A stretch of 32,000 nucleotides of DNA from Rhodobacter capsulatus SB 1003 (GTDB lineage Bacteria; Pseudomonadota; Alphaproteobacteria; Rhodobacterales; Rhodobacteraceae): assembly GCF_000021865.1 (NCBI RefSeq), contig NC_014034.1, positions 2,490,001 through 2,522,000 on the forward strand, given 5' to 3'. The notes beneath the pieces were generated by a model, which saw only the letters and a program-made list of their open reading frames with translations, ran no database searches and had not been told where the DNA came from. Of the stretch, positions 9,136 to 26,895 are shown one piece after another (position 1 is the stretch's first letter; every line of letters begins with the position of its first letter). Both the position numbers and the translations under genes were made by a program.

Positions 9136-9152
9136 TGGTCGGGGCGGCGAGA
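9136..9152. repeat. attL core (copy of the tRNA-Pro 3' end)
   Basis: TGGTCGGGGCGGCGAGA is identical to 26819-26835. Sits 5 nt after the erpA stop. Confidence 0.85.
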
Positions 9153-9225
9153 ACATAATAATGTTTTCGCCAAGCCCTTATTTTCCCCTAACAATATGCA
9201 AAACATTGACTTTTCGGCCTCAATC

Positions 9226-9247
9226 TGTAACACATGGATGTAACACA
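9226..9247 (+). promoter_or_regulatory. two direct copies of the TGTAACACA motif (candidate integrase arm-type or regulator sites), overlapping a possible int promoter
   Basis: TGTAACACA-tgga-TGTAACACA, 74-95 bp from the att core. TTGACT at 9206-9211 lies 16 bp upstream of TAACAC. Confidence 0.5.
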
Positions 9248-9271
9248 CAACCCTTCCACTTGGTGCATTTC

Positions 9272-11080
9272 ATGGCGCGCATTAGCCACCTCATCCGGCG
9301 CGGTTCTGCCTATTCAGCGCGAATCCGCGTCCCCCTAGATCTGGTCGAAACCCTCGGAAAGCGTGAGCTGGTGAAAGCACTTGGCACGAATGACGAGGCC
9401 GAGGCGAAGCGGCGGCTCTATCCGGTGCTGTCCAACTGGCAACGCGAGTTCGACGACCTTCGGACCCGCAAGGCCCTGGTGCCTGCCGACCGTGACCATG
9501 CCGTTTGGGACCATTACACCACCACCTTGGCCCGCGACGAAGCCGACCGGGCCGCCCTGCCCTCGCCCGCGCAGATCGAGGCAGAGAAGACGAAGCTTGT
9601 CGAAAAGGCGCAGCGCGGCGAGATCAAGGACGCCGAGCCGCTGACAATTCTGGACGCGACCCTTGATCTTCAAGTGATGCAGCGCGCCGGTGAAGTCTCG
9701 GCCCATGCGCGCGAGGCGAAGCTGAAAGACATGCGGAAGCACCTCATTGAAGGCAACACCGCTCTTATCGCGCATGAGGTGAACGCCTACCTGCACAACA
9801 ATCGCCTTTTGGTCGAACCCGGAACGCCGGATTGGATCAGCCTCGCCCGGCACATGATGCGGGCAGAGATCGAAGCGCTTCAACGCACCCTTGAGCGTGA
9901 CCGGGGCGATTACACCGGCCACCCGTCCGACCCGATCGTGAAGCCGCCCACCGGCGGGCGCCGTGAGTTCGCCAAGCCCGGCGAGACGATCATGGAAGTC
10001 TTCGAGACGTTTGCGAGCGAAAACCCGAACAGGGTGACGCCCGACCGGCTCAATCAGATCAGGCGCGACATCGGCATCTTTGTCGAAGTCGTGGGGGCGG
10101 GCTTTCCGGTTCATGCGATCGACAAGATGGCCGTTCGCGATTGGAAGGCCCTTCTGGTGAAGTATCCGATCCGGGCAACCGAGGTGAAGGACTTCAAGGG
10201 CATGACAATTCGGCAGATCGTGAAGGCGAACGAAAAGCTCGGGCGGCCCAAGTTGTCCGACCGCACCGTGAACCGTTACCTGTCGAGCCTTGGTGCCTTC
10301 TGCAATTGGCTTGTCGAGAATGGCTATCTGGCACAGAACCCCGTGTCGCGCATGGCCCTTAAGAAAGAGAAGAACTCAAAGACCTTCACCTTCACGTCCG
10401 ATCAGTTGAACACGCTGTTCAAGTCGCCGCTCTTCACCGGGGCGCAAAGCGACAAGGAAGGCGAATGGCGCTATATCTCCCGGCCCGGCAAGGTGCTGAT
10501 CCGCGACCACCGCTATTGGGTGCCCCTGATCATGCTGTTCAGCGGCGCAAGGAATGGCGAGATCGGCCAGCTTGCGACAAGTGACGTGCGCGAGCTGCAC
10601 GGCCACTGGATTTTCCACATTACCACCGAGGGCGAACAGACCGAGCAAGGCAAGTCGGTCAAGACCGAAGGTTCCATGCGGGTGCTGCCCATTCACCCCG
10701 AGCTGATCCGCCTCGGCTTCCTGCAATACCACGCGGAACGGGTGAAGGCGGGCGACAAGCAACTTTTCCCCGGCGCCAAGCGCAACGAACGGGGGCAGAT
10801 GATGGCCGAATTCTCGCGCGAGTTCGGCAAGTATCTGACGCGGATCGGCCTCAAGAACGGGCGCGGCCTGTCTCTCTATTCTTTCCGTCATGGCGCGACC
10901 GATGCGCTGCGCCGGGCCGGGTATCTGGACAGTCAGTTCGGTTTCATCCTTGGGCACACCGAGGCTTCGATGACCGGGCGTTATGGTCAGATGCCACAAG
11001 GGATGCTGCAACAGCGCGTGGAACTGGTGAACTCCATTGCCTACCCCGGCCTGAGTTTGGACCACCTCATTCCGCAATAA
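9272..11080 (+). CDS. int: tyrosine-type site-specific integrase (602 aa, extended N-terminal domain)
   Basis: The N-terminus MARISHLIRRGSAYSARIRVPLDLV resembles DUF6538-type integrases (from memory). The C-terminal catalytic region has ...GARNGEIGQL..., SFRHGATDALRRAG, LGHTEASMTGRYGQ (R, HxxR, H, Y). Confidence 0.85.
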   Translation: MARISHLIRRGSAYSARIRVPLDLVETLGKRELVKALGTNDEAEAKRRLYPVLSNWQREFDDLRTRKALVPADRDHAVWDHYTTTLARDEADRAALPSPAQIEAEKTKLVEKAQRGEIKDAEPLTILDATLDLQVMQRAGEVSAHAREAKLKDMRKHLIEGNTALIAHEVNAYLHNNRLLVEPGTPDWISLARHMMRAEIEALQRTLERDRGDYTGHPSDPIVKPPTGGRREFAKPGETIMEVFETFASENPNRVTPDRLNQIRRDIGIFVEVVGAGFPVHAIDKMAVRDWKALLVKYPIRATEVKDFKGMTIRQIVKANEKLGRPKLSDRTVNRYLSSLGAFCNWLVENGYLAQNPVSRMALKKEKNSKTFTFTSDQLNTLFKSPLFTGAQSDKEGEWRYISRPGKVLIRDHRYWVPLIMLFSGARNGEIGQLATSDVRELHGHWIFHITTEGEQTEQGKSVKTEGSMRVLPIHPELIRLGFLQYHAERVKAGDKQLFPGAKRNERGQMMAEFSREFGKYLTRIGLKNGRGLSLYSFRHGATDALRRAGYLDSQFGFILGHTEASMTGRYGQMPQGMLQQRVELVNSIAYPGLSLDHLIPQ

Positions 11081-11157
11081 TATAACATTTCCCTTGCGGC
11101 TGGATTCGGGCATGTGGTATTATTATACCCATACGAGTGCCCCTGTTTTCAGTTGCG

Positions 11158-12363
11158 ATGTTTCAAAAGTTCCTTTCTGCATTTCAGAAAAAGGCGGTGG
11201 GCGTTTCGACGCCTGCCGCCCTTCCGCTGTTTGGGCTTGCCCCGACCCTGACCGGCAAGACCGTCACCACCGAAAGCGCCCTGCGTGTGCCTGCCGTCGC
11301 CTGTGCGGTGGCGCTGATCGCCGAGACGGTGGGCTCGCTGCCCGCGAAGCTCTTCGAGAAAGACGGGCGGGCGAGCGTCACCGATCACGCGGCCTTTTCG
11401 CTGATCCATGACGAGGCGAACCCCTGGACCTCGGCCGAGGCGCTGCGGGTGCAGCTTACCACCGATGCGCTCTTGCGCGGCCACGGCTTCGCCCTTGTCG
11501 TGCGCAATGCCACCGGCGCCCCTGTCGAGCTGCATCGGCTCGAACCGCACATGGTTCAGGTCGAAACCGACGACTTCGGCGAACCGGCCTATCTGGTGCA
11601 GCTCGCCGATGGCCGCCACCGCTACCCCTTCACCGACATTCTGCATGTGAGCGCCTTCGGAGGTGCCTCGCCGATCACGCTTGGCCGCGAAGCCATCGGT
11701 CTTGCCCTCGCCTTTGAAGAACATATCGCCAAGCTCTTTGCGAACGGCGGCAAGCCCGGCGGCATCCTGAAGACCGAAAAGACCCTCGGCGACGAAGCCA
11801 AGGCGAAGCTGGCGACAAGCTGGACGGCGGCGCATGGCGCGGGCCGTTCGGGCGGCACCGCGATTCTGGACGAGGGCATGAGCTATGAAGCGGTGACGAT
11901 GACGCTCGCCGACACGCAATTCGCCGAGAACCGTCTGGAACAGATCCGCGAGATTGCCCGCGCCTTCCGCGTGCCACCGACGATGCTCTTCGAGCTGACG
12001 CGGGGCACCTGGAGCAATACCGAAGAGATGGCCCGGCAATTCCTGCAAGTGACGCTGAAGCCGTGGCTGGCGTCCTGGTCCTGGGCCTATGCGCGCTGCC
12101 TGCTTTCGCCCGAGGAACGCCGCCGCCTTTATGTCGAGTTCGTCACGGACGACCTGACCACCACCGACACCGCCGCCCGTGCCGCCGCCTATGGGCAGTA
12201 TCGCAGCATGGGCGCGATGACCGCCAACGAGGTGCGCGCCGGTCTGAACCTGCCGCCGCGCGCCGATGGCGACACGCTGCAAAACCCCTACACCACCACC
12301 GGCGCCGCCCCTGCGGTTGATCCGGTGGCTGATCCTGCCCCCGAGGATGCCCCGCATGACTGA
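11158..12363 (+). CDS. phage portal protein, HK97 family
   Basis: 401 aa: ...ALRVPAVACAVALIAETVGSLP...NPWTSAEALR...GGILKTEKTLGDEAKAKL...TAILDEGMSYEAV...QFAENRLEQIREIARAFRVPP, the typical HK97-type portal pattern. Start set at ATG 11158 (GTG 11137 is possible). Confidence 0.85.
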   Translation: MFQKFLSAFQKKAVGVSTPAALPLFGLAPTLTGKTVTTESALRVPAVACAVALIAETVGSLPAKLFEKDGRASVTDHAAFSLIHDEANPWTSAEALRVQLTTDALLRGHGFALVVRNATGAPVELHRLEPHMVQVETDDFGEPAYLVQLADGRHRYPFTDILHVSAFGGASPITLGREAIGLALAFEEHIAKLFANGGKPGGILKTEKTLGDEAKAKLATSWTAAHGAGRSGGTAILDEGMSYEAVTMTLADTQFAENRLEQIREIARAFRVPPTMLFELTRGTWSNTEEMARQFLQVTLKPWLASWSWAYARCLLSPEERRRLYVEFVTDDLTTTDTAARAAAYGQYRSMGAMTANEVRAGLNLPPRADGDTLQNPYTTTGAAPAVDPVADPAPEDAPHD

Positions 12364-12676
12364 CCGCATCACCCTGCGCGCTTTCTTTGGCGATGCCGAG
12401 CGCGCCTTCACCCTGACCGACCCGATGCTGACCGAGCTGGAGCGCCTGACCGGCCTTGGCACCGGCGCGCTCTATGCCCAGCTCGTCAACATGGCCTTCC
12501 CGGTGCAGGTTCTCGCGCAGGTGATCCGCCTTGGCCTGATCGGCGCAGGGATGACCCCCGAAGAGGCGAAGCACCTTTGCGCCGCCTATGCCGAGAACCG
12601 CCCGCTGGCCGAGGTCTTCCCGCTCGCCTTCGCGATCCTGGATGCGCGCTGGAGCGGTGTTGAGGTCAAGCCATGA
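12356..12676 (+). CDS. small hypothetical protein, GTA-gp10/tail-assembly-chaperone-like
   Basis: 106 aa: ITLRAFFGDAERAFTLTDPMLTELERLTGLG...VIRLGLIGAGMTPEEA follows the pattern I recall for the GTA gp10 (Phage_TAC_11-like) family. Coupled to the portal stop and the protease start (ATGA). Confidence 0.4.
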   Translation: MTDRITLRAFFGDAERAFTLTDPMLTELERLTGLGTGALYAQLVNMAFPVQVLAQVIRLGLIGAGMTPEEAKHLCAAYAENRPLAEVFPLAFAILDARWSGVEVKP

Positions 12677-14184
12677 CCGACCGGCTCGAAATCAAGGCGC
12701 AGCTCGCCGTGACCGAGGCGGGCGAGATCACCGGGATTGCCTGGCCGTTCGGCTCTGCCGACCGCGTGGGCGACGTGATCGTGAAAGGCGCCTTCACCGC
12801 CCCCGCCGCGCTGCCGATGCTCTTTGCCCATGATCAGGCGCAGGTGATTGGCGTCTGGGACCGGATCGCCGAGACCGAGGCCGGTCTGACGGTGAAGGGG
12901 CGCCTTCTGATCGACGACGTGGAACGCGCCCGCGAGGTGCGCGCGATGGTCAAGGCGGGGGCCGTCTCGGGCCTGTCGATCGGCTTTGTCACCAAGGATG
13001 CCAAGCGCGAAGGCCGGGGCCGCCGGATCACCGCGCTTGAGCTGCACGAAATCAGTATTGTTGCCGTCCCGGCGCATCCGGGCGCGCAGATCACCTCTTT
13101 CAAATCAACGCATTGCAATTCGGAGTTCACACAGATGGAACAAGAAGACATCGCGGCCCAAGCGCCGCAGATCGACACCAAAGCCTTTGACGAGATCAAG
13201 GCCCGCCTCGACAAGCTTGAAGCGAAGACGAACCGGCCGAGCCTGGCCGTGACCGGCGTGCAAAGCCCGATCATGGCCGCCGACGAGGTGAAGGGCTTCG
13301 TGCATTACCTGCGCACCGGCGACAAGTCCGAGACGAAGAGCCTCGCCTATGGCGCCCCCTCGACCGGCGGCATCCTCGCCCCCGAAACCGTCTCGACCGC
13401 GATCATCGAAAAGATCGCCGAACAATCGCCCGTGCGCGGGCTTGCCTCGGTCATTTCCATGAGCGGGCCGCTGCTGCAACTGCCCCGGCTGGTCAACGAG
13501 GTGCAGCCCGCCCATGTGACCGAGACCGCCGCGCGCCCGGAATCCGAGCCGACCTTCGAACAGATCGACCTCAAGCCGCATGAGATGGCGGTGATCGTGC
13601 CGGTGACGCGGGTTCTGCTCGAAGATGCGCAGGTCGATCTGAATGGCTATCTGAGCGCCCATATCGCCCGCCGCTTCGGCCAGCTCGAAGCGCAATGGTT
13701 CGTCAAGGGCAACGGCACCACCGCGGCCGAGGGCGTGCTGACCGCGACCGAGGTGCAGGAACTCGACGCGCCGACCCTGACGGCCGACACGCTGCTGGAC
13801 CTCTTCTATGCGGTGAAGACGCCCTATGCGCAGAATGGCGCGTGGATGATGAACCGCAAGACGATGGCGAGCATCCGCAAGCTGGCCGACCTCGACGGGC
13901 AACTTCTGTGGCAAAGCGGCCTTGCGGCGGGCCAACCGTCGCTGTTGCTCGGCCGCCCGGTCTATGAGGCGCCCGACATGGACGACGCGACCACCGGCAA
14001 GACGCCGATCGTCTTCGGGGACTTCGCCTCGGGTTACACGATCGCCGACCATACCGGCTTCAGCGTCATGCGCGACGATTACACCGGCGCGACGAATGGC
14101 ATCGTCAAGCTGCACGCCCGCCGCCGTGTCGGTGGTCGCGTGACGCCGGGCGAGGCGCTGGTGAAGCTCAAGCTTGCCGCCTGA
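12673..14184 (+). CDS. prohead serine protease (S78/HK97) fused in frame to an HK97-fold major capsid protein
   Basis: Residues 1-150 (LPMLFAHD...GLSIGF...HEISIVAVPAHPGA) are protease-like. Residues about 155-503 (coiled-coil delta-like start, then ...GGILAPE...LLQLPR...MAVIVPVTRVLLEDAQVDL...LLGRPVY...) are HK97 MCP-like. No stop lies between them. Confidence 0.85.
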   Translation: MTDRLEIKAQLAVTEAGEITGIAWPFGSADRVGDVIVKGAFTAPAALPMLFAHDQAQVIGVWDRIAETEAGLTVKGRLLIDDVERAREVRAMVKAGAVSGLSIGFVTKDAKREGRGRRITALELHEISIVAVPAHPGAQITSFKSTHCNSEFTQMEQEDIAAQAPQIDTKAFDEIKARLDKLEAKTNRPSLAVTGVQSPIMAADEVKGFVHYLRTGDKSETKSLAYGAPSTGGILAPETVSTAIIEKIAEQSPVRGLASVISMSGPLLQLPRLVNEVQPAHVTETAARPESEPTFEQIDLKPHEMAVIVPVTRVLLEDAQVDLNGYLSAHIARRFGQLEAQWFVKGNGTTAAEGVLTATEVQELDAPTLTADTLLDLFYAVKTPYAQNGAWMMNRKTMASIRKLADLDGQLLWQSGLAAGQPSLLLGRPVYEAPDMDDATTGKTPIVFGDFASGYTIADHTGFSVMRDDYTGATNGIVKLHARRRVGGRVTPGEALVKLKLAA

Positions 14185-14187
14185 GCC

Positions 14188-14826
14188 ATGACCCCGCTTG
14201 CGCGCAACGAAGAGGTGACTTTGCATCACGGGGGTTGGGCCGTGGTGCTGCGCCCCTCGCTGCGCGCGGCGATGACGCTTGAACGCCTGCACGATGGCTG
14301 GCCGGGTCTTCTCCTTGGGCTCGGGCAGTTCCGCTTGCAGACCGTTCAGGCGATCATCCGGGCTTCGGCGGTTGAACGCAACGCCGCCGAGGCCCTTCTG
14401 GCCTCTTTCGCTGCCGCCCCCATCTCGGCGGTGAAAGAGGCCGTCACCGCGCCGCTCGGCGCGCTTCTGACCCTCTTCCTTGCCCCGATGACCGAGACGG
14501 CCGAGACGGCAGAGACCGCCACCCCGGCCGCACCGAAGCCCTGGGCGGATGCCTATTCAGAGCTTTACCGCTTCGGCACGGGGTGGCTTGGCTGGAGCCC
14601 GGCCGAGACCTGGGCCGCGACACCGACCGAGATTGCGCAGGCGCTCGACGGCAAGCTCGCGCATCTGATCGCGTTGAACGGGGACGAGGGCAACGCCGGT
14701 CCCAGCGGTCCCGCCGGTCCCGGCCCCGACGCCTACACCCCCGCGCGGCTGCGCGAGATCGAAGAGCTGGGCTTCGACCCGGCCTTTGACCGCGAGGGCC
14801 TGCGCCGTCTGAAAGCGATGACCTGA
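14188..14826 (+). CDS. tail assembly chaperone-like protein (G-like N-terminus fused to a T-like C-terminus)
   Basis: The N-terminus VVLRPSLRAAMTLERL is GTA-gp10-like. The C-terminus YRFGTGWLGWSPAETWAATPTEIAQAL matches the phiE125-gp8/GTA g10.1-type chaperone motif (from memory). An ETAETAETA linker joins them. Confidence 0.55.
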   Translation: MTPLARNEEVTLHHGGWAVVLRPSLRAAMTLERLHDGWPGLLLGLGQFRLQTVQAIIRASAVERNAAEALLASFAAAPISAVKEAVTAPLGALLTLFLAPMTETAETAETATPAAPKPWADAYSELYRFGTGWLGWSPAETWAATPTEIAQALDGKLAHLIALNGDEGNAGPSGPAGPGPDAYTPARLREIEELGFDPAFDREGLRRLKAMT

Positions 14827-14828
14827 CC

Positions 14829-15173
14829 ATGCCCCGCCCGCCCCATATCTGCGCCTGTGGCCGCCTTGTGCCGCATGGCGAGCGCTGCACTTGCCAGAAA
14901 GACGCCGACCGCGCCCGCAAGCGCCGCCACGATGCGAAACGCCCCTCGGCCCGTGAACGCGGTTACACGACCGATTGGGAGAAAGAGCGCGCGGCGTTCC
15001 TTGAAGCGCACCCCTGTTGCGCGATCTGCGGGGCGGTGGCGAGCGTGGTCGATCACATCACCCCGCACAAGGGGAACAAGGCGCTCTTCTGGGACCGCTA
15101 CAACTGGCAAGCCCTCTGCAAGCCCTGCCATGACCGGGTGAAGCAAAGGCAAGAGCGAGCGGGCGATGTTTGA
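14829..15173 (+). CDS. HNH endonuclease (terminase-associated, HK97 gp74-like)
   Basis: 114 aa: CxCG...C.C N-terminal Cys cluster, then CCAICG...VDHITPHKGN...NWQALCKPCHDRV, the HNH/Zn motif. Confidence 0.85.
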   Translation: MPRPPHICACGRLVPHGERCTCQKDADRARKRRHDAKRPSARERGYTTDWEKERAAFLEAHPCCAICGAVASVVDHITPHKGNKALFWDRYNWQALCKPCHDRVKQRQERAGDV

Positions 15174-15432
15174 AGCGCCTTCACGCTGGAACCCTGAGCG
15201 GAACCTGTGGCTTGAGGTGCTTTATCGCACGGTGGAAGACGCGACCAAGGGGCCGCGCCATGTGCCCAAGCCCGCCGACAAAGCCCTGATCATGCGCGAG
15301 GCACGCGACTACCTGACCCGGCCGAGTCGCGACCTTGCGATGGTATGCGCCTTGGCCGGGGTGGACATGGGAGCCGTGATTGATCACATAGGCCGGAAGC
15401 TGGCCGGTGGAAGAAGTGCTGCGCCCCGGTGA
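15166..15432 (+). CDS. hypothetical protein
   Basis: 88-aa ORF whose ATG overlaps the HNH stop. Host-like GC and codon usage; no family recognised. Confidence 0.5.
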   Translation: MFEAPSRWNPERNLWLEVLYRTVEDATKGPRHVPKPADKALIMREARDYLTRPSRDLAMVCALAGVDMGAVIDHIGRKLAGGRSAAPR

Positions 15433-15540
15433 TCTGCGGGGCAAGTATATAAGTGTGGAAACTGCCTGACATGTCGCTGTTTGAGTAGCCAAGAGGCGCG
15501 ACTGATTGTAGCCTGATCTGGCATATGATCGGGGATCCAC

Positions 15541-15786
15541 ATGGACAAGAAAATTCCGACCTACGAAGTCATTGCCAATTACTTCAATGAAAGCCCGCTT
15601 GGCCTTTTCGAGTGCCCCTGCGGGGTGCGACACAGGCACGGACTACCGAGCCAACAAGGAGAGCCGGAACACAGGGTAGCCCATTGCCATGATAGTTCGC
15701 TTCATCCTAACGGATACTATATTGTCTGGAACGGCAAGAAGGATGGGGTGCGTCGGAACAAAAAGCTAGGGTGGGTAATCCCCTAG
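15541..15786 (+). CDS. small Cys/His-rich hypothetical protein (low-GC cassette gene 1)
   Basis: 81 aa: ...FECPCGVRHRHG...EHRVAHCHD.... GGGGA RBS 6 nt upstream. Lies at the start of the GC drop. Confidence 0.5.
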   Translation: MDKKIPTYEVIANYFNESPLGLFECPCGVRHRHGLPSQQGEPEHRVAHCHDSSLHPNGYYIVWNGKKDGVRRNKKLGWVIP

Positions 15787-15793
15787 TGTTTTC

Positions 15794-15807
15794 ATTGATT
15801 AATCAAT
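15794..15807. promoter_or_regulatory. perfect 14-bp palindrome between the cassette genes (candidate operator)
   Basis: ATTGATTAATCAAT, in the spacer between the 81-aa ORF stop (15786) and the membrane-protein gene. Confidence 0.4.
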
Positions 15808-15856
15808 TTAACTCTTGGTTGCTAAGAGCCAGCGGCTATATTCAATAGGGCATGGA

Positions 15857-16408
15857 ATGGCGATAGACCAAAAGACCACTCAAGAAAGAGTTAGCAACAT
15901 AGAAAATGATTCTGAGAACCGAATGAGCCAATTTCATGCTTGGCTTGGAATTGCATCTGCGGGTGGCATTGTGTCTCTCTCCAGCTTTGCGGGAGGCTCG
16001 CCTGATCCAGATTATACGTTTGCGCAACTCGTTCCGAGTTATATCTGTTTCTTGTTTGGAATTATCGCTGCCGCCGCGGTCGTATACTCATTATCGCTAT
16101 CGAGATCAAAATTTGCTGAACATATTGCATGCTCTTCAAATCGGGAAATTGCCAATGAGGCAATTCAAAGCATTCCCGTGATTATGAGTTACCCAAGAAG
16201 CATGACTGAAGGCGCAAATGGATCGAGGGATGAACTAATTTCAAAATCTCAGAGATTTCATGACCTGGCTGAACGTTCTTGGAGCGCCCACAGAAGGTGG
16301 TCGATTGTTTCCTCTATGTCTGTTGCAATATCTGCTCTTGCGTTTGTTCTTGGCTTCCTTTGGCCCATATATGTCGTGGTTTTTACGGAGAAAGGACTTA
16401 TCCCTTAA
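15857..16408 (+). CDS. membrane protein with three predicted TM helices (low-GC cassette gene 2)
   Basis: Hydrophobic segments are WLGIASAGGIVSLSSFAG, YICFLFGIIAAAAVVYSLSL and WSIVSSMSVAISALAFVLGFLWPIYVVVF, with a roughly 70-aa polar loop. G+C of hand-counted lines is 35-55% against about 68% in a flanking line. Start uncertain (TTG 15815, ATG 15857 or ATG 15923). Confidence 0.6.
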   Translation: MAIDQKTTQERVSNIENDSENRMSQFHAWLGIASAGGIVSLSSFAGGSPDPDYTFAQLVPSYICFLFGIIAAAAVVYSLSLSRSKFAEHIACSSNREIANEAIQSIPVIMSYPRSMTEGANGSRDELISKSQRFHDLAERSWSAHRRWSIVSSMSVAISALAFVLGFLWPIYVVVFTEKGLIP

Positions 16409-16546
16409 CCTCGCCGGTATAAAGTGTCGCCTAATTCAATAAAGCGGGTGGGGGCACCTTCCGACTTCTCCCCATTCCCCGGACCGGCGGGGGGAGGTCC
16501 GCGCAGGATGGGCGCTAAATAACTTTTTCGCAGACTCTTCAAACCG

Positions 16547-16578
16547 TTGACAGGATGTGTTACATTATTACACACGCC
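16547..16578 (+). promoter_or_regulatory. candidate promoter of the head-tail joining operon, overlapping a TGTGTTACA motif
   Basis: TTGACA (16547-16552), 16 bp, then TACACA. The spacer contains ATGTGTTACAttaTTACACACGCC, homologous to ATGTGTTACACACGCC at 26739-26754. Confidence 0.45.
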
Positions 16579-16599
16579 TTCTTTGACGAGTTTTCGAGT

Positions 16600-16884
16600 A
16601 TGCCTTTCGTTACCGTGCCCGAGCTGAAAGCCCAGCTCAACCTCGACCATGACCTCGACGACGCGCTTTTGTCGCACCAGATCGACGCAGCCGAAGCCCA
16701 TGTCGCAAGCTTCATCGGTGCGCCGCTGACCGACCCCCTTCCGGCCGCGATCCGGCAAGCGGTGCTGATGCTCGCCGCTTACTGGTATGAGACCCGCGAG
16801 ACCGCGCAGGCCGGGGGTGCGCCCTTTGCCGTGCCGTTCGGGGTGCATGACATTTTGCAACCGCACCGGGTCTGGGTGGTCTGA
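16600..16884 (+). CDS. head-tail connector protein (gp6-like, Phage_connect_1 type)
   Basis: 94 aa: MPFVTVPELKAQLNLDHDLDDALLSHQIDAAEAHVASFIG...AIRQAVLMLAAYWYETRE, the characteristic gp6-like pattern. Confidence 0.75.
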   Translation: MPFVTVPELKAQLNLDHDLDDALLSHQIDAAEAHVASFIGAPLTDPLPAAIRQAVLMLAAYWYETRETAQAGGAPFAVPFGVHDILQPHRVWVV

Positions 16885-16885
16885 C

Positions 16886-17365
16886 ATGGCCGAGCTGGAC
16901 CTGAACGCCCAAGCCGCCCGGCTGGCGCGGCGCCTTGAAGCGATTCCTGCGACCGTTCTGGAAGCCCTGCGCCCCGCCGTGGTGCAGGCGGCCGAAGACC
17001 TCGCCGCCACCGCGCGCAGCCTTGCCCCCGAGGCCGAGGGTGATCTGAAAGCTTCCATCGTCGTGACCCCGCCCGGCGCCGAGACCCCGGCTTATGCCGA
17101 AGGCGGTGGCCGTCGCGTCGCGGGGGCCAATCAGGCGCTTGTCACCGTGGGCAATCCCGAACAGCGTCACGGCCACCTTGTCGAGTTCGGCACGAAGCCG
17201 CATGTGAACGCCGGGCAGTTCGCAGGGACGCAGCACCCCGGCACCGCGGCGCAGCCCTTCCTTCTGCCCGCTGCGCGTCTGACCGAGGATCGCGCCCGGC
17301 GCCGGATCGCCCGCGCCATCGGTCAAGCCGTGCGCAAGGCCGCGCAAGGGGGTGGTCATGCTTGA
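16886..17365 (+). CDS. HK97 gp10-family head-tail joining protein
   Basis: 159 aa: ...LKASIVV...HGHLVEFGTKPH...AQPFLLPA..., the gp10-like motif set. Confidence 0.7.
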   Translation: MAELDLNAQAARLARRLEAIPATVLEALRPAVVQAAEDLAATARSLAPEAEGDLKASIVVTPPGAETPAYAEGGGRRVAGANQALVTVGNPEQRHGHLVEFGTKPHVNAGQFAGTQHPGTAAQPFLLPAARLTEDRARRRIARAIGQAVRKAAQGGGHA

Positions 17366-17780
17366 CCCGGCTCTTGCCTTTCAAACCGCCGTGCGGGCGG
17401 CGCTGATCGACGCGCCCGAGGTGCTGGCCCATGTGCAACCCGCGAACATTCGCGCAGGCAGCATCCGCCCCGAGCGCCTGCCTTCGGTGGTGCTGGGCGA
17501 TGCCCGCACCGAGTTCCTGGGCTGCGCGGCCGGGTCGCAACGTCTCGCGCGGGTGTTCCTGACGCTGCATATCTGGGCGCAGGAAGACGGTGCCGACACC
17601 GCGCGCCAGATCGGGGCGGCGATCTATGGTGCGCTGGAGTTCGGGCCGAAGGACACGGCGGAAATCAGCCTCGACGACTGGGCGCAACCTCGCATGGTCT
17701 GGTTGCGCGATCCGCAGCCCGAGCTGACGCTGACACATGGCGCGATGGCGCTTGAGGCCGTTGTCCGGTGGCGGGTGTGA
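17358..17780 (+). CDS. DUF3168-type tail completion/terminator-like protein
   Basis: 140 aa: ...LAFQTAVRAALIDAPEVLAHV...PSVVLGD...LTLHIWAQ..., a pattern typical of DUF3168 phage proteins. ATG overlaps the upstream stop. Confidence 0.6.
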   Translation: MLDPALAFQTAVRAALIDAPEVLAHVQPANIRAGSIRPERLPSVVLGDARTEFLGCAAGSQRLARVFLTLHIWAQEDGADTARQIGAAIYGALEFGPKDTAEISLDDWAQPRMVWLRDPQPELTLTHGAMALEAVVRWRV

Positions 17781-17782
17781 CG

Positions 17783-18094
17783 ATGCAGGCCGGAAAGCTT
17801 CAAAACCGCATCGCCCTGCAACGGCTGACCGAGACGGTGGCGGCTTCGGGGGCCGTCACGACCACCTGGGCGACCTATGCGCAAGGCCGGGCCGAGCTGC
17901 GTCAGGCGGGCGTGTCCGAGTTCCTGACCGCTGCGACCGAGGCCACGACGAAGAACGCGGTGTTCCTTCTGCGCTGGCTGCCGGGCGTGTCGGTGGCCGA
18001 TCGCATCCTTCACGATGGCACGGCATGGAACATCGTTGCCATTGCCGAGATCGGGCGCAGGCGCGGCCTTGAGCTGCGGGCGGTGGCCGCATGA
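17783..18094 (+). CDS. phage head closure / head-tail adaptor protein (Phage_H_T_join type)
   Basis: 103 aa: MQAGKLQNRIALQRLTETVAASGAVTTTWATYAQGRAELRQ...NAVFLLRW...RILHDGTAWNIVAI, the classic head-closure pattern. Confidence 0.75.
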   Translation: MQAGKLQNRIALQRLTETVAASGAVTTTWATYAQGRAELRQAGVSEFLTAATEATTKNAVFLLRWLPGVSVADRILHDGTAWNIVAIAEIGRRRGLELRAVAA

Positions 18095-18097
18095 AGC
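18079..18097 (+). repeat. 19-bp perfect direct repeat, left copy (flanks the MTase-like gene)
   Basis: GGCGGTGGCCGCATGAAGC, identical to 18717-18735. Each copy spans a ...AVAA stop with an overlapping ATGAAGC start. Confidence 0.9.
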
Positions 18098-18732
18098 CCG
18101 CAGCGATCTTCCTTTATGAACTCTCGGGCAAGTCTGCCGAGCCCTTCGCGGCTGCGGGTTGGGATTGCTACTGCATCGACATTCAGCATCCGGGCAACCG
18201 CACCGAAGGCAATGTCCACTTCGTTCAGGCCGATGCGCGGCGCTGGAAACCGACCCGCGACATGGTGGAGCGCTGCCGGTTCTTCGCGGCCTTTCCGCCC
18301 TGCGATGATCTGGCGACCTCGGGCGCGCGCTGGTTCAAGGGCAAGGGTCTGCACGCGCTGGCCGATGCCATCGAACTTTTCGCCATCGCCGCGGAATGGG
18401 CCGAGTTCTTCGAAGTGCCCTATCTGATCGAGAACCCGCGCAGCACGATCAGCACTTATTGGCGCAAGCCCGATCACAGCTTCGACCCCTGCGACTATTC
18501 CCGGCTGGCACCCTCCGAGCATTACACCAAGAAAACATGCCTCTGGACCGGGGGCGGTTTCGTGATGCCCGCCAAAACCCCGCTGCCCGGCCCGGCGCAG
18601 GCCAATGTGATCCGTGACATGAAGGGCAAGGGCCGCGCGCGGGCGAATGCGCGCAGCGTGACCCCGACCGGCTTCATGCGCGCGGCCTTCGAGGCGAACT
18701 TCGGCGCGACGGCGCAGGCGGTGGCCGCATGA
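18091..18732 (+). CDS. compact DNA (cytosine-5) methyltransferase-like protein
   Basis: 213 aa. It has a degenerate motif I (FLYELSGKS...AAGWDCYCIDI), a motif IV-like AAFPPCDDLATSGA (PC dipeptide), a motif VI-like YLIENPRS and a C-terminal RSVTPTGFMRAAFEANF. No room for a normal target-recognition domain. Confidence 0.5.
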   Translation: MKPAAIFLYELSGKSAEPFAAAGWDCYCIDIQHPGNRTEGNVHFVQADARRWKPTRDMVERCRFFAAFPPCDDLATSGARWFKGKGLHALADAIELFAIAAEWAEFFEVPYLIENPRSTISTYWRKPDHSFDPCDYSRLAPSEHYTKKTCLWTGGGFVMPAKTPLPGPAQANVIRDMKGKGRARANARSVTPTGFMRAAFEANFGATAQAVAA

Positions 18733-18735
18733 AGC
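18717..18735 (+). repeat. 19-bp perfect direct repeat, right copy
   Basis: GGCGGTGGCCGCATGAAGC, identical to 18079-18097. Confidence 0.9.
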
Positions 18736-18737
18736 GC

Positions 18738-19142
18738 TTAGTAGAACATCCAGCGCTCTTGGGCCGGTCCTTCAAGCGAATACATCATGCCGCTTTGCGC
18801 ATCGAAGGTGCAAAGGAAGTTCCCGGTCTTCCGTCCGATTTGATCCTTCGGCACGATGACTTCGAAAACCATCTGGCCGTATTTCTTCCAAGAACGCCCA
18901 AGGTAGAATTCACCGTCGCGCTTCCCGTCCTTGGTGCCCTCTTCCCTCAGCCATTTGACGCATTCTTGCCCGTAGTTCTCGCGCTCGAAATCCGTGGTCT
19001 TCGTGGATTCCATTTCGGCGATCTTCTGTCGGGCCTCGACGAACTGCGTCCGAACCCGTTCGTATTCGTCGATCCCTTGGAACAGGGCGTATCCCGTCGC
19101 GGCATTGGTCAAAACGAGAAAGACGATAAGGCAATTTCGCAT
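18738..19142 (-). CDS. secreted/periplasmic hypothetical protein (the only reverse-strand gene in the island)
   Basis: 134 aa starting MRNCLIVFLVLTNAATGYALFQG (signal-peptide-like), followed by a charged globular part with 2 Cys. Third-position G/C bias supports this strand over the + strand ORF 18729-19208. Confidence 0.6.
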   Translation of the reverse strand: MRNCLIVFLVLTNAATGYALFQGIDEYERVRTQFVEARQKIAEMESTKTTDFERENYGQECVKWLREEGTKDGKRDGEFYLGRSWKKYGQMVFEVIVPKDQIGRKTGNFLCTFDAQSGMMYSLEGPAQERWMFY

Positions 19143-19204
19143 GGCTGTTCTGTCTCTTGCTTCAATGGCTGGGGGCAGTTTTCCACTTATCTTAAGGACT
19201 TGCA

Positions 19205-19600
19205 ATGAGCGCCATTGCCCTTCGCGGGGTGAAGCCCGCACTCAAACCCGATGCCGAGGCGCTGACGAAGGTGCCGCCCGCGCCCGCCTATCTCTCGCTT
19301 CACGCGAAGGCGGAATGGAAGCGCATCTTTCCGCAACTGATCGCGCGCCGGATCGTCACCCGTGCCGATCTGGCGGGCGTCGAAGCCTATTGTTCGGCCG
19401 TGGGCATCTGTCGGCAGATCGAAGCCGATCGCACGGCGGCAGGCGGGGTGATCGACAAGACCGCCTTCGGCATCTGGAACCGCGCAGCCCAGACCGCCCG
19501 GCAACTTGCTTCGGAATATGGTCTCACGCCGACCTCGCGCGCCCGCATCGGCTCGGCCGCGCCCGAGGATGCCGAAGACGATGACCCGCTGTCGGTGTGA
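19205..19600 (+). CDS. terS: phage terminase small subunit, P27 family
   Basis: 131 aa: ...APAYLSLHAKAEWKRIFPQL...ADLAGVEAYCSAVG...ARQLASEYGLTPTSRARI, the P27/Terminase_4 pattern. AAGGA RBS. Confidence 0.8.
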   Translation: MSAIALRGVKPALKPDAEALTKVPPAPAYLSLHAKAEWKRIFPQLIARRIVTRADLAGVEAYCSAVGICRQIEADRTAAGGVIDKTAFGIWNRAAQTARQLASEYGLTPTSRARIGSAAPEDAEDDDPLSV

Positions 19601-19603
19601 CGC

Positions 19604-21217
19604 ATGACGAGCCAAAGCACCTATCCGACCTGGGTCTTCGACGGCTCGCCGATCGACGACCCGCAAGGCGCGGGCGAGCGGGCGGTGCAGTTCCTGCGAC
19701 GGCTGCGCCATCCGGCCAGCACCGCGCCGAAGCGCGCCTTTCAGCTTGCGCCCTGGCAAGAGCGCATCGTTCGGCGCATCTATGGCCCGCGCGATGCGCA
19801 GGGCGCCCGCGTCGTGAAGATGGTCTTCCTGATGATCCCGCGCGGCAACCGCAAGACCTCGCTCGCCGCCGCGCTGGCGCTGTTGCACTTGCTTGGCCCG
19901 GAACGGGTGCCCGCCGGGCAGATCATCTTTGCCGCCTCGGATCGCGAACAGGCGGGCATCGGCTTTCGCGAAGCGGCCGAGATCATCCGGCAAGACCGGC
20001 GCCTTGAGGCCGTGACCCGGCTTTATGACGCCCATAACGCGCCGAAGGCGATCAAGAGCACCCGCGACGGCTCGGCGCTGAAGGCTGTTTCCTCGGATGG
20101 GCGCGCGCAGCACGGCACGACGCCCACCTTCGTTCTGGCGGACGAGATTCACGTCTGGCAGGGGCGCGAGCTTTGGGAAGCGCTGCAATCGGGCATGGCG
20201 AAGCGCGCGGGCGGGCTGACCGTCATTGCCACCACCGCAGGACGCGGGAACGAAGGTCTGGCCGCCGAGCTTTACGCCTATGCGCGCGGTGTGGCGCTTG
20301 GGCAGATCGTGAACCCCGAGTTCCTGCCGATCCTCTTCGAGCCCGATCCGGGCGCGGATTGGGAAGACGAAGCGCTCTGGCATCGGGTGAACCCCGGCCT
20401 GGCGCATGGCTTTCCCGACCTCGACGGGCTGCGCTCGCTGGCCCGCAAGGCGAAGGACAGTCCGGGCGAGCGTTACAGCTTCGAGCAATTCAACCTGAAC
20501 CGATGGCTCGGGAACTCGCGCGACCCGCTCTTCGACTTCGACACCTATGATGCGCGGGTGTTCGACGATGACGAGGAAGACCTTGAGCAACTGCCTTGCT
20601 GGCTTGGGGTGGACCTGTCGCGCTCGGGCGATCTGACGGCCGTTGTCGCAGCCTTCCATCACCCGGACGGGCAAGTGACGCTCAAGCCCGCGTTCTTCGT
20701 GCCCGGCGAAGAGCTGAAAGCCCGCGCCGACCGCGACGGGGTGCCCTATGAGCGCTGGCGCGATGAAGGGCTGATCCGGGTTTGCCCCGGCCCGATCATC
20801 GACGAAGGCATGGTCGAAGACGAGATCCGCGACCTCTGCGGCCGTTATGACGTGCAAGAGATCGCCTTCGACCCGCATCTGGCCACCCGGATGATGCAGC
20901 GCCTTTATGATGATGGCTTGCCGGTGGTCGAAGTCCGACAAGGCCCGCTGACGATGGGCGCCGCCGGGGCCGACCTTGAGCGCATCGTGAACGGCAAGCT
21001 GGTGCGCCATGACGGCCACCCGATCTTGCGTCAGCACTTCGCAAGCGTGGTGGCGGTGCGCACCGACTCCGGGCTGGTGAAGATGCACAAGGGCCAGAAG
21101 CGCGACCGGATCGACGGCGCGATTGCAAGCGCGATGGCCGTTTACCGCCTGAGCCTCGGGCAAAGCAATGCAAGCGCCTATAACGCCCCCGCCTCAAGCG
21201 GGCTTTTCGTGTTCTGA
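19604..21217 (+). CDS. terL: phage terminase large subunit (Terminase_1 type)
   Basis: 537 aa: ...LAPWQERIVRRIYG...MIPRGNRKTSLAAALAL (Walker A-like)...FVLADEIHVW (Walker B)...and the C-terminal nuclease region IAFDPH...DRIDGAIA. Confidence 0.9.
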   Translation: MTSQSTYPTWVFDGSPIDDPQGAGERAVQFLRRLRHPASTAPKRAFQLAPWQERIVRRIYGPRDAQGARVVKMVFLMIPRGNRKTSLAAALALLHLLGPERVPAGQIIFAASDREQAGIGFREAAEIIRQDRRLEAVTRLYDAHNAPKAIKSTRDGSALKAVSSDGRAQHGTTPTFVLADEIHVWQGRELWEALQSGMAKRAGGLTVIATTAGRGNEGLAAELYAYARGVALGQIVNPEFLPILFEPDPGADWEDEALWHRVNPGLAHGFPDLDGLRSLARKAKDSPGERYSFEQFNLNRWLGNSRDPLFDFDTYDARVFDDDEEDLEQLPCWLGVDLSRSGDLTAVVAAFHHPDGQVTLKPAFFVPGEELKARADRDGVPYERWRDEGLIRVCPGPIIDEGMVEDEIRDLCGRYDVQEIAFDPHLATRMMQRLYDDGLPVVEVRQGPLTMGAAGADLERIVNGKLVRHDGHPILRQHFASVVAVRTDSGLVKMHKGQKRDRIDGAIASAMAVYRLSLGQSNASAYNAPASSGLFVF

Positions 21218-21230
21218 GTGAGTATGAGTG

Positions 21231-23597: not shown

Positions 23598-23796
23598 GAC
23601 TCCACAGGAAGGCCGTGGAGCGCCCTATTGTGCCGGGGGTGGGGTTGGGCCGGAACGGGGCAGGATGGGACTCAGAGGCGCCTTCCTGAGTCTCTGGCGC
23701 GTGCCGCGGTGCAGGGACCGGGAACGGGGTCACAAACCGAGGGAGGGAAGCGGGCGCAGCCCGCGACCGACCGGGGAAGGGAGGCGTGTCGACATT

Positions 23797-23868
23797 CCTT
23801 TCCGCGGTTTCTTATTTTAGCCCCCCTTTATTTTAAGGAGTAAACTAGAAGAGAAAGCCGCGGAAAGG
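23797..23868. repeat. 11-bp inverted repeat (CCTTTCCGCGG / CCGCGGAAAGG) bracketing a ~50-bp AT-rich core
   Basis: CCTTTCCGCGG at 23797-23807 and its reverse complement at 23858-23868. The intervening tttcttattttagcccccctttattttaaggagtaaactagaagagaaag is the most AT-rich stretch of this region. Confidence 0.7.
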
Positions 23869-23884
23869 ATTGCTGACACCTCCG

Positions 23885-24031
23885 CGGTTCTAACCCTCCC
23901 TTCCTCGGTTCTAACCCTTCCTTCCTCGGTTCTGATCTTCTCTTCGCCGGTTCCAAGCAATCCTTCCCCGGTCATAAGCAATGCCGACCCGGCCTGACAA
24001 ATCCGCGGACCGACCAGAATACCACTTGACG
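23885..24031 (+). repeat. 21-bp phased iteron array (5 clear units, 2 degenerate), running into the RHH promoter
   Basis: The units are CGGTTCTAACCCTCCCTTCCT, CGGTTCTAACCCTTCCTTCCT, CGGTTCTGATCTTCTCTTCGC, CGGTTCCAAGCAATCCTTCCC, CGGTCATAAGCAATGCCGACC, CGGCCTGACAAATCCGCGGAC and CGACCAGAATACCACTTGACG. Inverted iteron-like AACCGAGGGAGGGAAG and ACCGGGGAAGGGAGG lie at about 23735-23785. Confidence 0.7.
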
Positions 24032-24055
24032 CGTATACGCGTATCGCGGTATATT
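24026..24055 (+). promoter_or_regulatory. sigma70-like promoter with an embedded 14-bp perfect palindrome (operator candidate)
   Basis: TTGACG (24026-31), 18 bp, then TATATT (24050-55). ACGCGTATACGCGT (24029-24042) overlaps the -35 and spacer. Sits 37 bp upstream of the RHH gene start. Confidence 0.6.
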
Positions 24056-24091
24056 GCGGGCAATGAGAACCTAGCCCCTAAAGGACACAAG

Positions 24092-24538
24092 ATGGCTTAC
24101 ATGTTGAGATTGCCCGACGAACGCGGCGCGCAACTGCGTCAAATCGCGGAAAAGAAGAACACGACCGTGAGTGAGCTGATCACCGATTACATCCGTTCGG
24201 AGATCAAAGCTGGCACCATTCCGAGCAACATCCCCGGTATCAATGTCGCCAAGGCGGGCGAAAGCATCGCCATTTCCGCGCCCGGCTTCGAGGCGAGCGT
24301 TCCGGCGCATAAAGGCCAGACCCTCGCGGACCTGCTGCGCAAATCCGCGGCCCTGACCCCCTCGGCCTTCGAGCACAAGAAGGAATGGCTCGAAGGCATC
24401 GCCGCTCTGAGCGGCATCAAGTTGAAACGCATGGGCGCAGGCGTGCGCATCGTGTCGCCGATCACAGGGGCAGAATACCCGCTCGCCTCTGGTGTGGCCG
24501 AAGACCTCGCGAGCGAAATCGAACGCGCTGCCAAATAA
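24092..24538 (+). CDS. ribbon-helix-helix (CopG/Arc-like) DNA-binding protein with a ~100-aa C-terminal extension
   Basis: The N-terminus MAYMLRLPDERGAQLRQIAEKKNTTVSELITDYIRSEI fits a beta-strand/helix/helix RHH pattern. AAGGA RBS 6 nt upstream of ATG 24092. Confidence 0.6.
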   Translation: MAYMLRLPDERGAQLRQIAEKKNTTVSELITDYIRSEIKAGTIPSNIPGINVAKAGESIAISAPGFEASVPAHKGQTLADLLRKSAALTPSAFEHKKEWLEGIAALSGIKLKRMGAGVRIVSPITGAEYPLASGVAEDLASEIERAAK

Positions 24539-24604
24539 GAACAGGGGCGAGCGCGGCAGCGCTCACCCCCTGAATGCGTCCCTCTATGACCTTCAAAAGA
24601 TACC

Positions 24605-25285: not shown

Positions 25286-25323
25286 GTAGCCATATAGCTA
25301 AGTATTTGACAAAAAAGACTTCC

Positions 25324-25353
25324 TTGACGGCGAAATCCGATCGCGGCTAGATT
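25324..25353 (+). promoter_or_regulatory. sigma70-like promoter candidate
   Basis: TTGACG (25324-29), 18 bp, then TAGATT (25348-53), the same geometry as the 24026 promoter. An extra TTGACA lies at 25306-11, and a 7-bp hairpin CCGGGGG/CCCCCGG lies in the leader. Confidence 0.45.
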
Positions 25354-25385
25354 CCGGGGGTAAACCAACCCCCGGAGCATCACCA

Positions 25386-25547: not shown

Positions 25548-25575
25548 TCAATCCAGACAAACTTTCCTGTGGTCG

Positions 25576-26818: not shown

Positions 26819-26835
26819 TGGTCGGGGCGGCGAGA
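26819..26835. repeat. attR core (the 3' end of tRNA-Pro)
   Basis: TGGTCGGGGCGGCGAGA, identical to 9136-9152. Confidence 0.85.
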
Positions 26836-26895
26836 TTCGAACTCACGACCTTCTGTACCCAAAACAGACGCGCTACCAGGCTGCGCTACGCCCCG
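26819..26895 (-). tRNA. tRNA-Pro (anticodon UGG)
   Basis: The 77-nt reverse-strand sequence CGGGGCG-TA-GCGC-AGCCTGGTA-GCGC-G-TCTGT-TTTGGGT-ACAGA-AGGTC-GTGAG-TTCGAAT-CTCGC-CGCCCCG-A-CCA folds into a full cloverleaf. The anticodon loop gives TGG. Confidence 0.95.

Follow-up and report, generated by a model that had tools for sequence, protein, structure and literature searches.

Exchangeable low-GC cargo with a SLATT-like membrane protein in a candidate capsid-forming satellite of Rhodobacter capsulatus SB 1003

A stretch of 32,000 nucleotides from the genome of Rhodobacter capsulatus SB 1003 (contig NC_014034.1, positions 2,490,001 to 2,522,000 of the forward strand; referred to as the window, with its first letter as position 1) was analysed around a segment of low G+C content (GC) that lies between structural modules of a putative integrated phage satellite. 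The segment encodes an 81-aa Cys/His-rich protein (ORF81; ORF, open reading frame) and a 183-aa membrane protein. The best overall explanation, to which a probability of roughly 0.55 was assigned, is that both genes are cargo in a hotspot of the satellite, the 183-aa protein most likely being a defence or exclusion effector that perturbs membranes and ORF81 being separate from it. The function of the 183-aa protein was proposed because of its remote homology to SLATT proteins and because a homologue is encoded directly behind a SAVED effector with two transmembrane (TM) helices (2TM-SAVED) in an operon of a type II cyclic-oligonucleotide-based antiphage signalling system (CBASS).

A cargo hotspot between the HNH and connector genes

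Relatives of the R. capsulatus element were collected from IMG/VR through homologues of its head-tail connector and of orf88, an optional gene behind the HNH endonuclease gene, on 10-20 kb contigs that share the backbone of the element. Further elements were recovered with a conserved 47-bp motif, resulting in more than 40 elements in all, and cargo ORFs were called in about 20 of them. The spacing from the HNH gene or orf88 to the connector gene ranged from about 200 bp, which is effectively empty (L046-L048), to about 3.4 kb (L036). The elements recovered through the motif were equally variable, with spacings from orf88 to the motif down to about 130 bp (L078). Where genes were called, the ORFs within the interval differed in nearly every element and were often encoded on the opposite strand, and the cargo of the sister elements had a GC of 0.46-0.52 against 0.58-0.69 in the flanks. 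Homologues of orf88 (34-95% identity) followed the HNH gene in L035, L037-39, L042, L046-49, L052, L055 and L056; no family was assigned to orf88 with Pfam, PHROG or PADLOC.

The limits of the variable region were determined with blastn. Homology to the window ended at 15149-15167 in relatives without orf88 (L030, L031, L033 and L034) and at 15383 in the orf88-bearing relatives L055 (95%) and L056 (83%), and it resumed with sharp breakpoints at 16449-16451 in L031, L033, L034 and L056. As homology stops at 15383 and resumes at 16449-16451, the variable cargo was delimited as listed in Table 1, essentially the interval singled out in the initial annotation of this DNA. The sharp drop in G+C content which had drawn attention to the segment was borne out (0.44-0.50 over 15601-16400 versus about 0.66-0.72), with values of 0.495 for 15601-16000 and 0.438 for 16001-16400 against 0.66-0.72 on both sides. 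The segment as a whole had a GC of 0.48 against 0.685 in its flanks. The G+C content at third codon positions (GC3) was 0.61 for ORF81 and 0.39 for the membrane gene, compared to 0.72-0.85 for the HNH, orf88, connector and capsid genes.

Defence genes were searched for in the sister cargo by comparing 25 proteins with PADLOC and Pfam. Matches were obtained to the PADLOC models MTase_II (8e-169), REase_II (1.5e-27), NsnB (4e-37), Gop-beta-cII 'beta' (7e-36) and a CapP-like M78 peptidase (1e-29), and to the Pfam family Beta_protein (4e-41). The NsnB match is an ATPase of L036 which also matched AAA_21/AAA_15; all assignments to single loci other than L036 were inferred from motifs in the translated ORFs. 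Further Pfam matches in the sister cargo were Peptidase_M78, AAA_21, N6_N4_Mtase and NTP_transf_2. The sets recognised in this way are a type II restriction-modification system, an NsnB-like ATPase, a Gop-beta-cII-like set with an M78 peptidase, and a nucleotidyltransferase with a pentapeptide-repeat protein.

These comparisons indicate that the interval from the HNH gene (with or without orf88) to the 47-bp motif is a hotspot for exchangeable low-GC cargo in this satellite family, and that the window segment is horizontally acquired cargo which fills the hotspot of its own element. Since the segment fills the variable slot, the initial description of foreign, low-GC accessory cargo at a seam between structural modules is supported; the seam corresponds to a cargo hotspot which carries recognised anti-phage genes in sister elements.

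The 47-bp motif forms the right anchor of the hotspot. Its 20-nt core was near-invariant across 12 aligned elements (19 of 20 positions identical), compared to just about 70% DNA identity in the coding flanks; the motif also includes a G-rich loop flanked by a 5-bp inverted repeat. The window contains a single copy of the motif, and so does each of 39 IMG/VR contigs. In almost all cases it lies between the HNH gene or orf88 and the connector gene, and it immediately precedes either the connector gene or a second small cargo slot. The motif is a candidate cos (cohesive-end) site or a candidate control or regulatory site of the late operon. The second small slot, to the right of the motif, was observed in some sister elements (L035, 3320-3829; L038, 3313-3936; L041, 3339-3884, minus strand). 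The product of the extra gene which these three elements carry there, between motif and connector, is 169-207 aa long and resembles a lipoprotein or a protein with a signal peptide.

The two cargo proteins

Two start codons are available to the membrane ORF, ATG at 15857 (183 aa) and TTG at 15815 (197 aa); the ATG was selected because the family alignment supports this position. Kyte-Doolittle analysis placed hydrophobic segments at residues of about 23-46, 53-79 and 148-176. An AlphaFold2 (AF2) model based on 32 sequences (predicted local distance difference test, pLDDT, 94.8) contained three long helices at residues 5-46, 51-105 and 122-176, in agreement with the hydropathy profile, and the three strong TM helices recognised initially were recovered with both methods. 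The acidic DPD loop was placed outside on the basis of hydropathy and charge distribution. According to the positive-inside rule, the three TM helices would be inserted in the inner membrane with the N-terminus in the cytoplasm, and the N-terminal helix and the extensions of two helices would form a three-helix bundle on the K/R-rich, predicted cytoplasmic side. The bundle carries the polar positions H89, R96, N121, R124, E139 and W142, which are conserved in the family.

A word-indexed protein search returned the membrane protein itself as its sole match. Searching 1.84 billion representative sequences with HMMER yielded 54 clusters (at 50% identity), 38 of them with E values of 1e-10 or lower. 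Full-length members are about 180-240 aa long and collinear, and every named one is called 'hypothetical protein'. In library scans of 32 family members, SLATT_4 and SLATT_1 were the sole recurrent family matches: NCBIfam SLATT_4 was found in 6 of the 32 (best E 1.2e-4), NCBIfam SLATT_1 in 4 (best 2.4e-4) and Pfam SLATT_1 in 3 (best 0.022). The consensus of the family matched SLATT_4 with an E value of 1.3e-6 and 28.4 bits, collinear over 111 of the 154 profile positions (18-128). Sequence and profile searches against the PDB gave nothing for the membrane family or for the ORF81 family.

Screening against a defence database and structure prediction had been suggested initially as checks. The former was negative, as PADLOC-DB v2 matched neither cargo protein and gave two spurious single matches across the 32 members of the membrane family. 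The latter produced a confident model for the membrane protein and a five-stranded one for ORF81, with uninformative Foldseek searches for both. The remark that neither protein was recognisable still applies to the fold of ORF81; the membrane protein was placed in a real family of 54 clusters with remote SLATT similarity and one member in a CBASS operon.

This member was located by tblastn of the family consensus against plasmids, on the 106-kb plasmid of Roseobacter denitrificans (L058, NZ_CP027406.1, 22652-27759). The operon comprises, in this order, genes for a CD-NTase (PDB 9woo, 3e-92), a ThiF/Cap2 protein, an MPN/Cap3 protein, a Cap14-like SAVED protein with two N-terminal TM helices (PDB 9om7, 8.5e-10), and the membrane-family member WP_143090276.1, whose start overlaps the SAVED gene by 11 nt. 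WP_143090276.1 and the window protein share 32% identity (BLASTP, E 8e-33; hhalign probability 100%). As judged from the gene arrangement, the fifth gene is translationally coupled to the 2TM-SAVED effector gene of this type II CBASS operon. An accessory membrane subunit of Cap14-like effectors was not found in the CBASS literature searched.

In the other contexts examined, the family occurred as solo genes on mobile elements; these contexts comprise the window copy and at least seven others. One of these members is encoded beside an integrase gene in R. capsulatus, again with low GC (0.48 versus 0.64). Other solo sites are an island with int and DUF927 genes, a position behind an int-alpA-primase module, the vicinity of a relaxase gene and a SIR2-like gene, and an island in Asticcacaulis. 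Searching with a sub-alignment of the family gave six metagenome loci and no viral contigs, and tblastn of the consensuses of both cargo families against 50,697 phage genomes gave no matches. The same two queries retrieved from plasmids the ORF81 copies on Cereibacter chromids and the R. denitrificans CBASS plasmid, and nothing else. No match to the R. denitrificans CD-NTase, Cap2, Cap3 or SAVED protein was found in the window by tblastn; the cargo consists of the two small genes alone.

ORF81 contains the sequence CPCG..HRHG..HRVAHCHD. Seven relatives were identified at 64-80% identity, together with a distant one (P0009) which keeps CPFC..H.HG..EHRVAHCHD. Residues C25, C27, H31, H33, H44, H48, C49 and H55 are invariant in the family, and this makes metal binding by ORF81 plausible. 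The AF2 model (7 sequences) had a pLDDT of 72.5 and showed five strands followed by a disordered basic tail. No significant match was found for ORF81 in Pfam, PHROG, PADLOC, PDB or BFVD, and Foldseek against PDB and BFVD gave nothing below an E value of 0.1. DUF6527 (PF20137) was considered for ORF81 and rejected: the match had 14.1 bits and an E value of 0.045 against a gathering threshold of 23.6, the consensus scored 13.5 bits, and two of three members matched weakly.

One relative of ORF81 immediately precedes the portal gene of a Salipiger pallidus satellite which is broadly of the same type (L016). Others were found beside divergent helix-turn-helix regulators and a capsid module (L017 and L018), upstream of a ClpP-capsid module (L011), and with an AAA_25 replication gene ahead of it and HNH and TerS genes following (L029). 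The placement between early and late modules in several satellites suggests, as a conjecture, a role in regulation or in interference with the helper. Since solo homologues also occur on chromids of Cereibacter and Rhodobacter (L015, L025, and L057, which is Cereibacter azotoformans pORIO1), the family is not restricted to satellites. None of the ORF81 contexts contained Bub genes (E1, E2 or Ubl). The chromid copies lie between a gene for a giant cadherin/RTX-like adhesin or a polyhydroxybutyrate depolymerase gene and an exopolysaccharide biosynthesis cluster, and Rhodobacter sp. NSM has two ORF81 paralogues.

Against relatives, the proportion of nonsynonymous differences (pN) was 0.21-0.25 for ORF81 and 0.38-0.51 for the membrane gene, compared to synonymous proportions (pS) of 0.68-0.89 and 0.72-0.87, respectively. 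Both ORFs were regarded as real genes because pN was far below pS against every relative, and both are under purifying selection.

The host element and its sequence features

The element which carries the cargo extends over 17.7 kb (9136-26835) between exact copies of a 17-bp attachment site (att) repeat (Table 1). Genes were annotated on an identical contig (L014; the L014 coordinate plus 5540 gives the window coordinate) and by direct scans. From left to right, the order is host prfC, a gene for an HD hydrolase, a gene for an Fe-S protein, then integrase, portal, a TAC_11-like protein, an S78 protease-capsid fusion, a TAC_6-like protein, HNH, orf88 and the cargo. To the right of the cargo follow the gp6-like connector, a gp10-like protein, a gp17-like tail completion protein, a head completion protein, a 213-aa protein, a 134-aa protein (minus strand), TerS, TerL, a 788-aa protein and several small genes.

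Phage-inducible chromosomal islands that form capsids (cf-PICIs) have been given a working definition by a size of about 10-18 kb, an integrase and a capsid/packaging module, and the lack of lysis genes or a complete tail module (bioRxiv 10.1101/2025.02.11.637232). The size of the R. capsulatus element lies within this range. Pfam searches of the called genes of L014 and of the window identified an integrase and the element's own capsid/packaging module (HNH, TerS and TerL); the genes called on L014 include none for a tail tube, a baseplate or lysis. Because integrase, portal, protease-capsid fusion, HNH, connector and completion proteins, TerS and TerL are present without tail tube, baseplate and lysis genes, the element is classified from its gene content as an integrative, capsid-forming, PICI-like phage satellite at tRNA-Pro.

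Table 1. Features of the window around the cargo segment and at the ends of the element
Feature	Position	Strand	Basis
attL, 17-bp direct repeat TGGTCGGGGCGGCGAGA; left end, just upstream of the integrase gene	9136..9152	none	Exact 17-mer shared with 26819-26835
Integrase (DUF6538 + Phage_integrase), first gene	9272..11080	+	Called gene and Pfam on identical contig L014
HNH endonuclease, packaging module; conserved left flank	14829..15173	+	Pfam HNH 2e-6; PHROG HNH 5e-28
orf88, optional conserved gene after HNH	15166..15432	+	Homologues in relatives
Variable low-GC cargo segment (approximate limits)	15384..16449	none	blastn breakpoints and GC
Left repeat copy GTATATAAGTGT	15445..15456	+	Judged chance
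ORF81, 81-aa Cys/His-rich protein, predicted all-beta	15541..15786	+	Homologues, AF2, pN/pS
Perfect 14-bp AT-rich palindrome ATTGATTAATCAAT	15794..15807	none	70-nt spacer between cargo genes
183-aa predicted inner-membrane protein, SLATT-like family	15857..16408	+	HMMER family, AF2, hydropathy
Right repeat copy GTATAAAGTGT	16417..16427	+	Judged chance
Non-coding 47-bp motif GGACCGGCGGGGGGAGGTCC...TAAATAACTTTT, right anchor of hotspot	16481..16527	+	Conservation across elements
Head-tail connector (gp6-like adaptor); conserved right flank	16600..16884	+	Pfam Phage_connect_1 1.7e-15; PHROG head-tail adaptor Ad1 1e-27
tRNA-Pro(TGG), with attR copy of the 17-bp repeat (26819-26835) at its 3' end	26819..26895	-	ARAGORN, Rfam, repeat

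Both cargo ORFs, the palindrome and the two repeat words reported for the segment in the initial annotation were all read from the sequence where they had been placed. The imperfect direct repeat formed by GTATATAAGTGT and GTATAAAGTGT had been described as bracketing the two genes, and was rejected as an insertion scar. Shuffling of the 1066-bp segment gave an equally good or better terminal direct repeat in 81 of 500 cases, and the repeat words were absent from every related non-identical locus, including the other cargo modules, so that the bracket is attributed to chance. The palindrome ATTGATTAATCAAT is present and perfect, with marginal significance: perfect palindromes of at least 14 bp occurred in 28 of 500 (5.6%) dinucleotide shuffles of the segment, and three of them, ATTGATTAATCAAT included, are found in the 32-kb window. 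It sits at the junction of two sub-modules of unlike GC and may be an operator.

Scanning of 15100-16900 for promoters and terminators gave nothing above shuffle expectation, in the palindrome region as elsewhere. The 15-mer TAGCCTGATCTGGCA, found upstream both of ORF81 and of the portal gene of the Salipiger element L016, was considered as a shared regulatory site and dismissed as within chance (blastn E 0.55). With Rfam, the tRNA-Pro gene was the sole match across the whole window.

Further observations concern other parts of the element. The 788-aa protein (21231-23597, plus strand) is a homologue of tape-measure proteins, with 57% identity to a segment of a Sinorhizobium phage tape-measure protein (E 2e-47), and the TAC_11-like (12356-12676) and TAC_6-like (14188-14826) proteins resemble tail-assembly chaperones. 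A tape-measure homologue and two such chaperone-like proteins are unusual for a capsid-forming PICI, and the satellite may manipulate the tail assembly of its helper. The region 18091-19142, between the head-completion gene and TerS, contains the gene of the 213-aa protein, which resembles phage DNA (cytosine) methyltransferase genes at the DNA level, and the reverse-strand gene of the 134-aa protein in a local GC dip (0.53). This region may be a second cargo slot within the packaging operon. The genes at 24092-26638 had no clear Pfam assignment, and a primase or other replication module was not recognised among them. The weak matches of the 148-aa protein (24092-24538) to DUF6364 and DUF6290 were its sole Pfam signals. 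Another perfect 14-bp palindrome, ACGCGTATACGCGT, lies at 24029-24042, about 50 bp upstream of the gene for this protein, and may be an operator of a regulatory region of the satellite.

Proposed function and comparison with known systems

In the proposed mechanism, the 183-aa protein would insert in the inner membrane with its three TM helices and a cytoplasmic N-terminus and, upon a trigger, would perturb or permeabilise the membrane. Lysogen and satellite would be protected, either by abortive infection or by the exclusion of competing phages. Candidate triggers of the stand-alone protein are a phage product and a signal sent by some host system whose genes lie elsewhere. ORF81 would act separately, as a small protein of metal-binding type which recurs in satellites of Rhodobacterales. 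Both cargo genes are co-oriented with the packaging operon and could be expressed by read-through or from weak promoter-like sequences of their own.

Several points weigh against this explanation. The window protein alone gave no SLATT, PADLOC or Pfam match at threshold, and the SLATT_4 score of the family consensus was far below the curated cutoff of 55. Profiles rich in TM helices are prone to compositional matches, and this bears on the SLATT_4 score as well. Foldseek searches of the PDB with the model of the membrane protein returned generic BAR and coiled-coil helical bundles at E values of 0.3 or higher. The association with CBASS comes from one plasmid in two records, and the closest full-length relative with a contig (P0022) had no SAVED gene directly upstream on its sole contig of 1 kb. 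Moreover, the genes in such hotspots are not all defence genes.

The initial annotation had viewed the two cargo genes as a pair of a small sensor and a membrane effector. In full, this explanation describes a dedicated two-gene abortive-infection system in which the Cys/His-rich protein senses infection and gates the membrane effector. The two genes are neighbours within one cargo segment, with a common orientation and a spacer of 70 nt, the slot holds multi-gene defence systems in other elements, and the palindrome between the genes is a possible shared operator. Co-occurrence, whose absence had been named in advance as a refutation, was surveyed by tblastn of both families against 64 loci and in 38 further loci recovered through the motif. 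Among the 64 loci, ORF81 and the membrane gene were found together in L001-L010 and L014 alone, all of which are identical copies of the window element, and neither gene was present in the 38 motif-recovered loci. The partner was missing in about nine independent loci of the ORF81 family and in at least nine independent loci of the membrane family, so that co-occurrence in independent genomes was not found. The genes also differ in GC3 (0.61 versus 0.39) and are not translationally coupled, and neither product had a PADLOC match. The lack of independent co-occurrence and the unlike GC3 suggest two separate acquisitions into one slot. From their occurrence across genomes, the two genes have independent distributions in evolution and are not a conserved pair; the two-gene system is considered unlikely, and the absent co-occurrence brings it close to refuted. 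The reading as a pair was corrected, since adjacency in a hotspot does not by itself make a system.

An ordinary membrane function in the satellite life cycle, i.e. holin-like timing of lysis or superinfection exclusion by blocked injection without a signalling component, would agree with the three TM helices, with the co-orientation of the gene with the late operon, and with weak Phage_holin_3_6 matches in 5 of the 32 family members (best E 0.011); solo membrane morons which block DNA entry are common in prophages. However, typical holins are smaller than this protein, which has a conserved polar helical domain of about 70 residues, its surroundings contain no endolysin or spanin gene and the called genes of the element no lysis gene, and a homologue belongs to a plasmid CBASS operon. 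Clear homology to holins or spanins, which had been named beforehand as evidence against an accessory system, was looked for and not found. As the gene is absent from the sister satellites, it is not needed for their life cycle, and a function of this kind was rated as rather unlikely. A role in counter-defence was given somewhat less weight. Here, the solo copy of a CBASS-partner protein would be a decoy or inhibitor of host membrane effectors, and helper and satellite would replicate in CBASS-positive hosts. Because one family member is coupled to a Cap14-like 2TM-SAVED gene, the family protein could be a regulatory or partner subunit rather than a killer, and satellites do need a productive helper infection. 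On the other hand, most of the sister hotspot cargo is defence and not anti-defence, family members on integrative elements occupy typical defence positions, and CBASS genes were not detected in the window by tblastn. That the two ORFs are functionless hitch-hikers, i.e. decaying remnants of earlier insertions, is very improbable. Both families are rare and bear 'hypothetical protein' names alone, and no promoter was called, but neither ORF is broken or shortened compared to its family, pN lies far below pS in every comparison with relatives, the model of the membrane protein reaches a pLDDT of 95 from a 32-sequence alignment, and more than 100 assemblies of the element share the identical sequence.

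The preferred explanation remains hotspot cargo with a membrane-perturbing effector and a separate ORF81. A further, doubtful step would regard the stand-alone SLATT-like members as a new class of self-sufficient, single-gene membrane modules for immunity (or anti-immunity) on satellites. In one version, infection may be sensed directly by the cytoplasmic three-helix bundle, with ORF81 possibly a locally recruited, Zn-binding trigger or adaptor. In the other, the protein may plug into or silence cyclic-nucleotide (2TM-SAVED) channels of the host in trans.

DUF6527/BubE is a serine protease with a zinc finger, encoded in ubiquitination-like Bub operons (bioRxiv 10.1101/2024.11.21.623953). ORF81 resembles it in its CPCG-type Cys knuckle and its predicted small beta fold, but is about half as long, with a match that spans 35 residues over the CPCG...HC region and with no E1, E2 or Ubl neighbours.

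SLATT proteins are predicted pore-forming effectors with 2-3 TM helices which move readily between defence systems and act in CBASS, RADAR, DRT3, DRT10 and AbiA as effectors, accessories or replacement modules (PMC9226505; DRT10 preprint). In common with the SLATT families (NF033632 SLATT_4, NF033634 SLATT_1, PF18181), which are small proteins of 2-3 TM helices with helical extensions, the window protein has three TM segments. SLATT proteins are mobile between conflict systems, and one member of the membrane family is found in a SMODS (CD-NTase) operon. The family differs in its scores well below the curated cutoffs, with no match for the window protein itself, and in having a third TM helix and motifs of its own (WLGxGSAGG, LPDPD, HNR, N..RN and AE.AW); in addition, the window lacks a partner of the nucleotide synthase, reverse transcriptase or SLOG type.

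Cap14 (Saf-2TM-SAVED) is a chloride channel gated by cyclic GMP-AMP (PMC10402079). The likeness to Cap14 is that of an inner-membrane helical protein of an anti-phage signalling operon, and a homologue of the window protein directly follows, and overlaps, a 2TM-SAVED gene. Unlike Cap14, the window protein is a separate polypeptide and has no SAVED or other recognisable ligand-binding domain.

Satellite hotspots and SLATT-type effectors are of kinds already known. New are the unannotated, three-helix, SLATT-like family, which mostly travels alone, the ORF81 family, and the location of a hotspot with a conserved anchor motif within the operon for head and packaging genes in a cf-PICI-like family of Alphaproteobacteria. 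How effectors that travel alone are triggered is a question for SLATT proteins generally. As in the hotspots of P4 and P2 and the immune cargo of PICIs and cf-PICIs, conserved flanks enclose interchangeable low-GC cargo with known defence systems, and one sister element carries a Gop-beta-cII-like set, the classic cargo of the P4 hotspot. The hotspot described here differs from these by its position within the packaging/head operon, between HNH and connector and beside the conserved 47-bp motif. In enterobacterial cf-PICIs, variable regions have been reported before and after the packaging operon; the host clade of the window satellite is, in contrast, the Alphaproteobacteria. Carried by at least 40 IMG/VR elements of a widespread satellite family, the hotspot offers a place to mine new defence genes, as the hotspots of P4, P2 and PICIs do.

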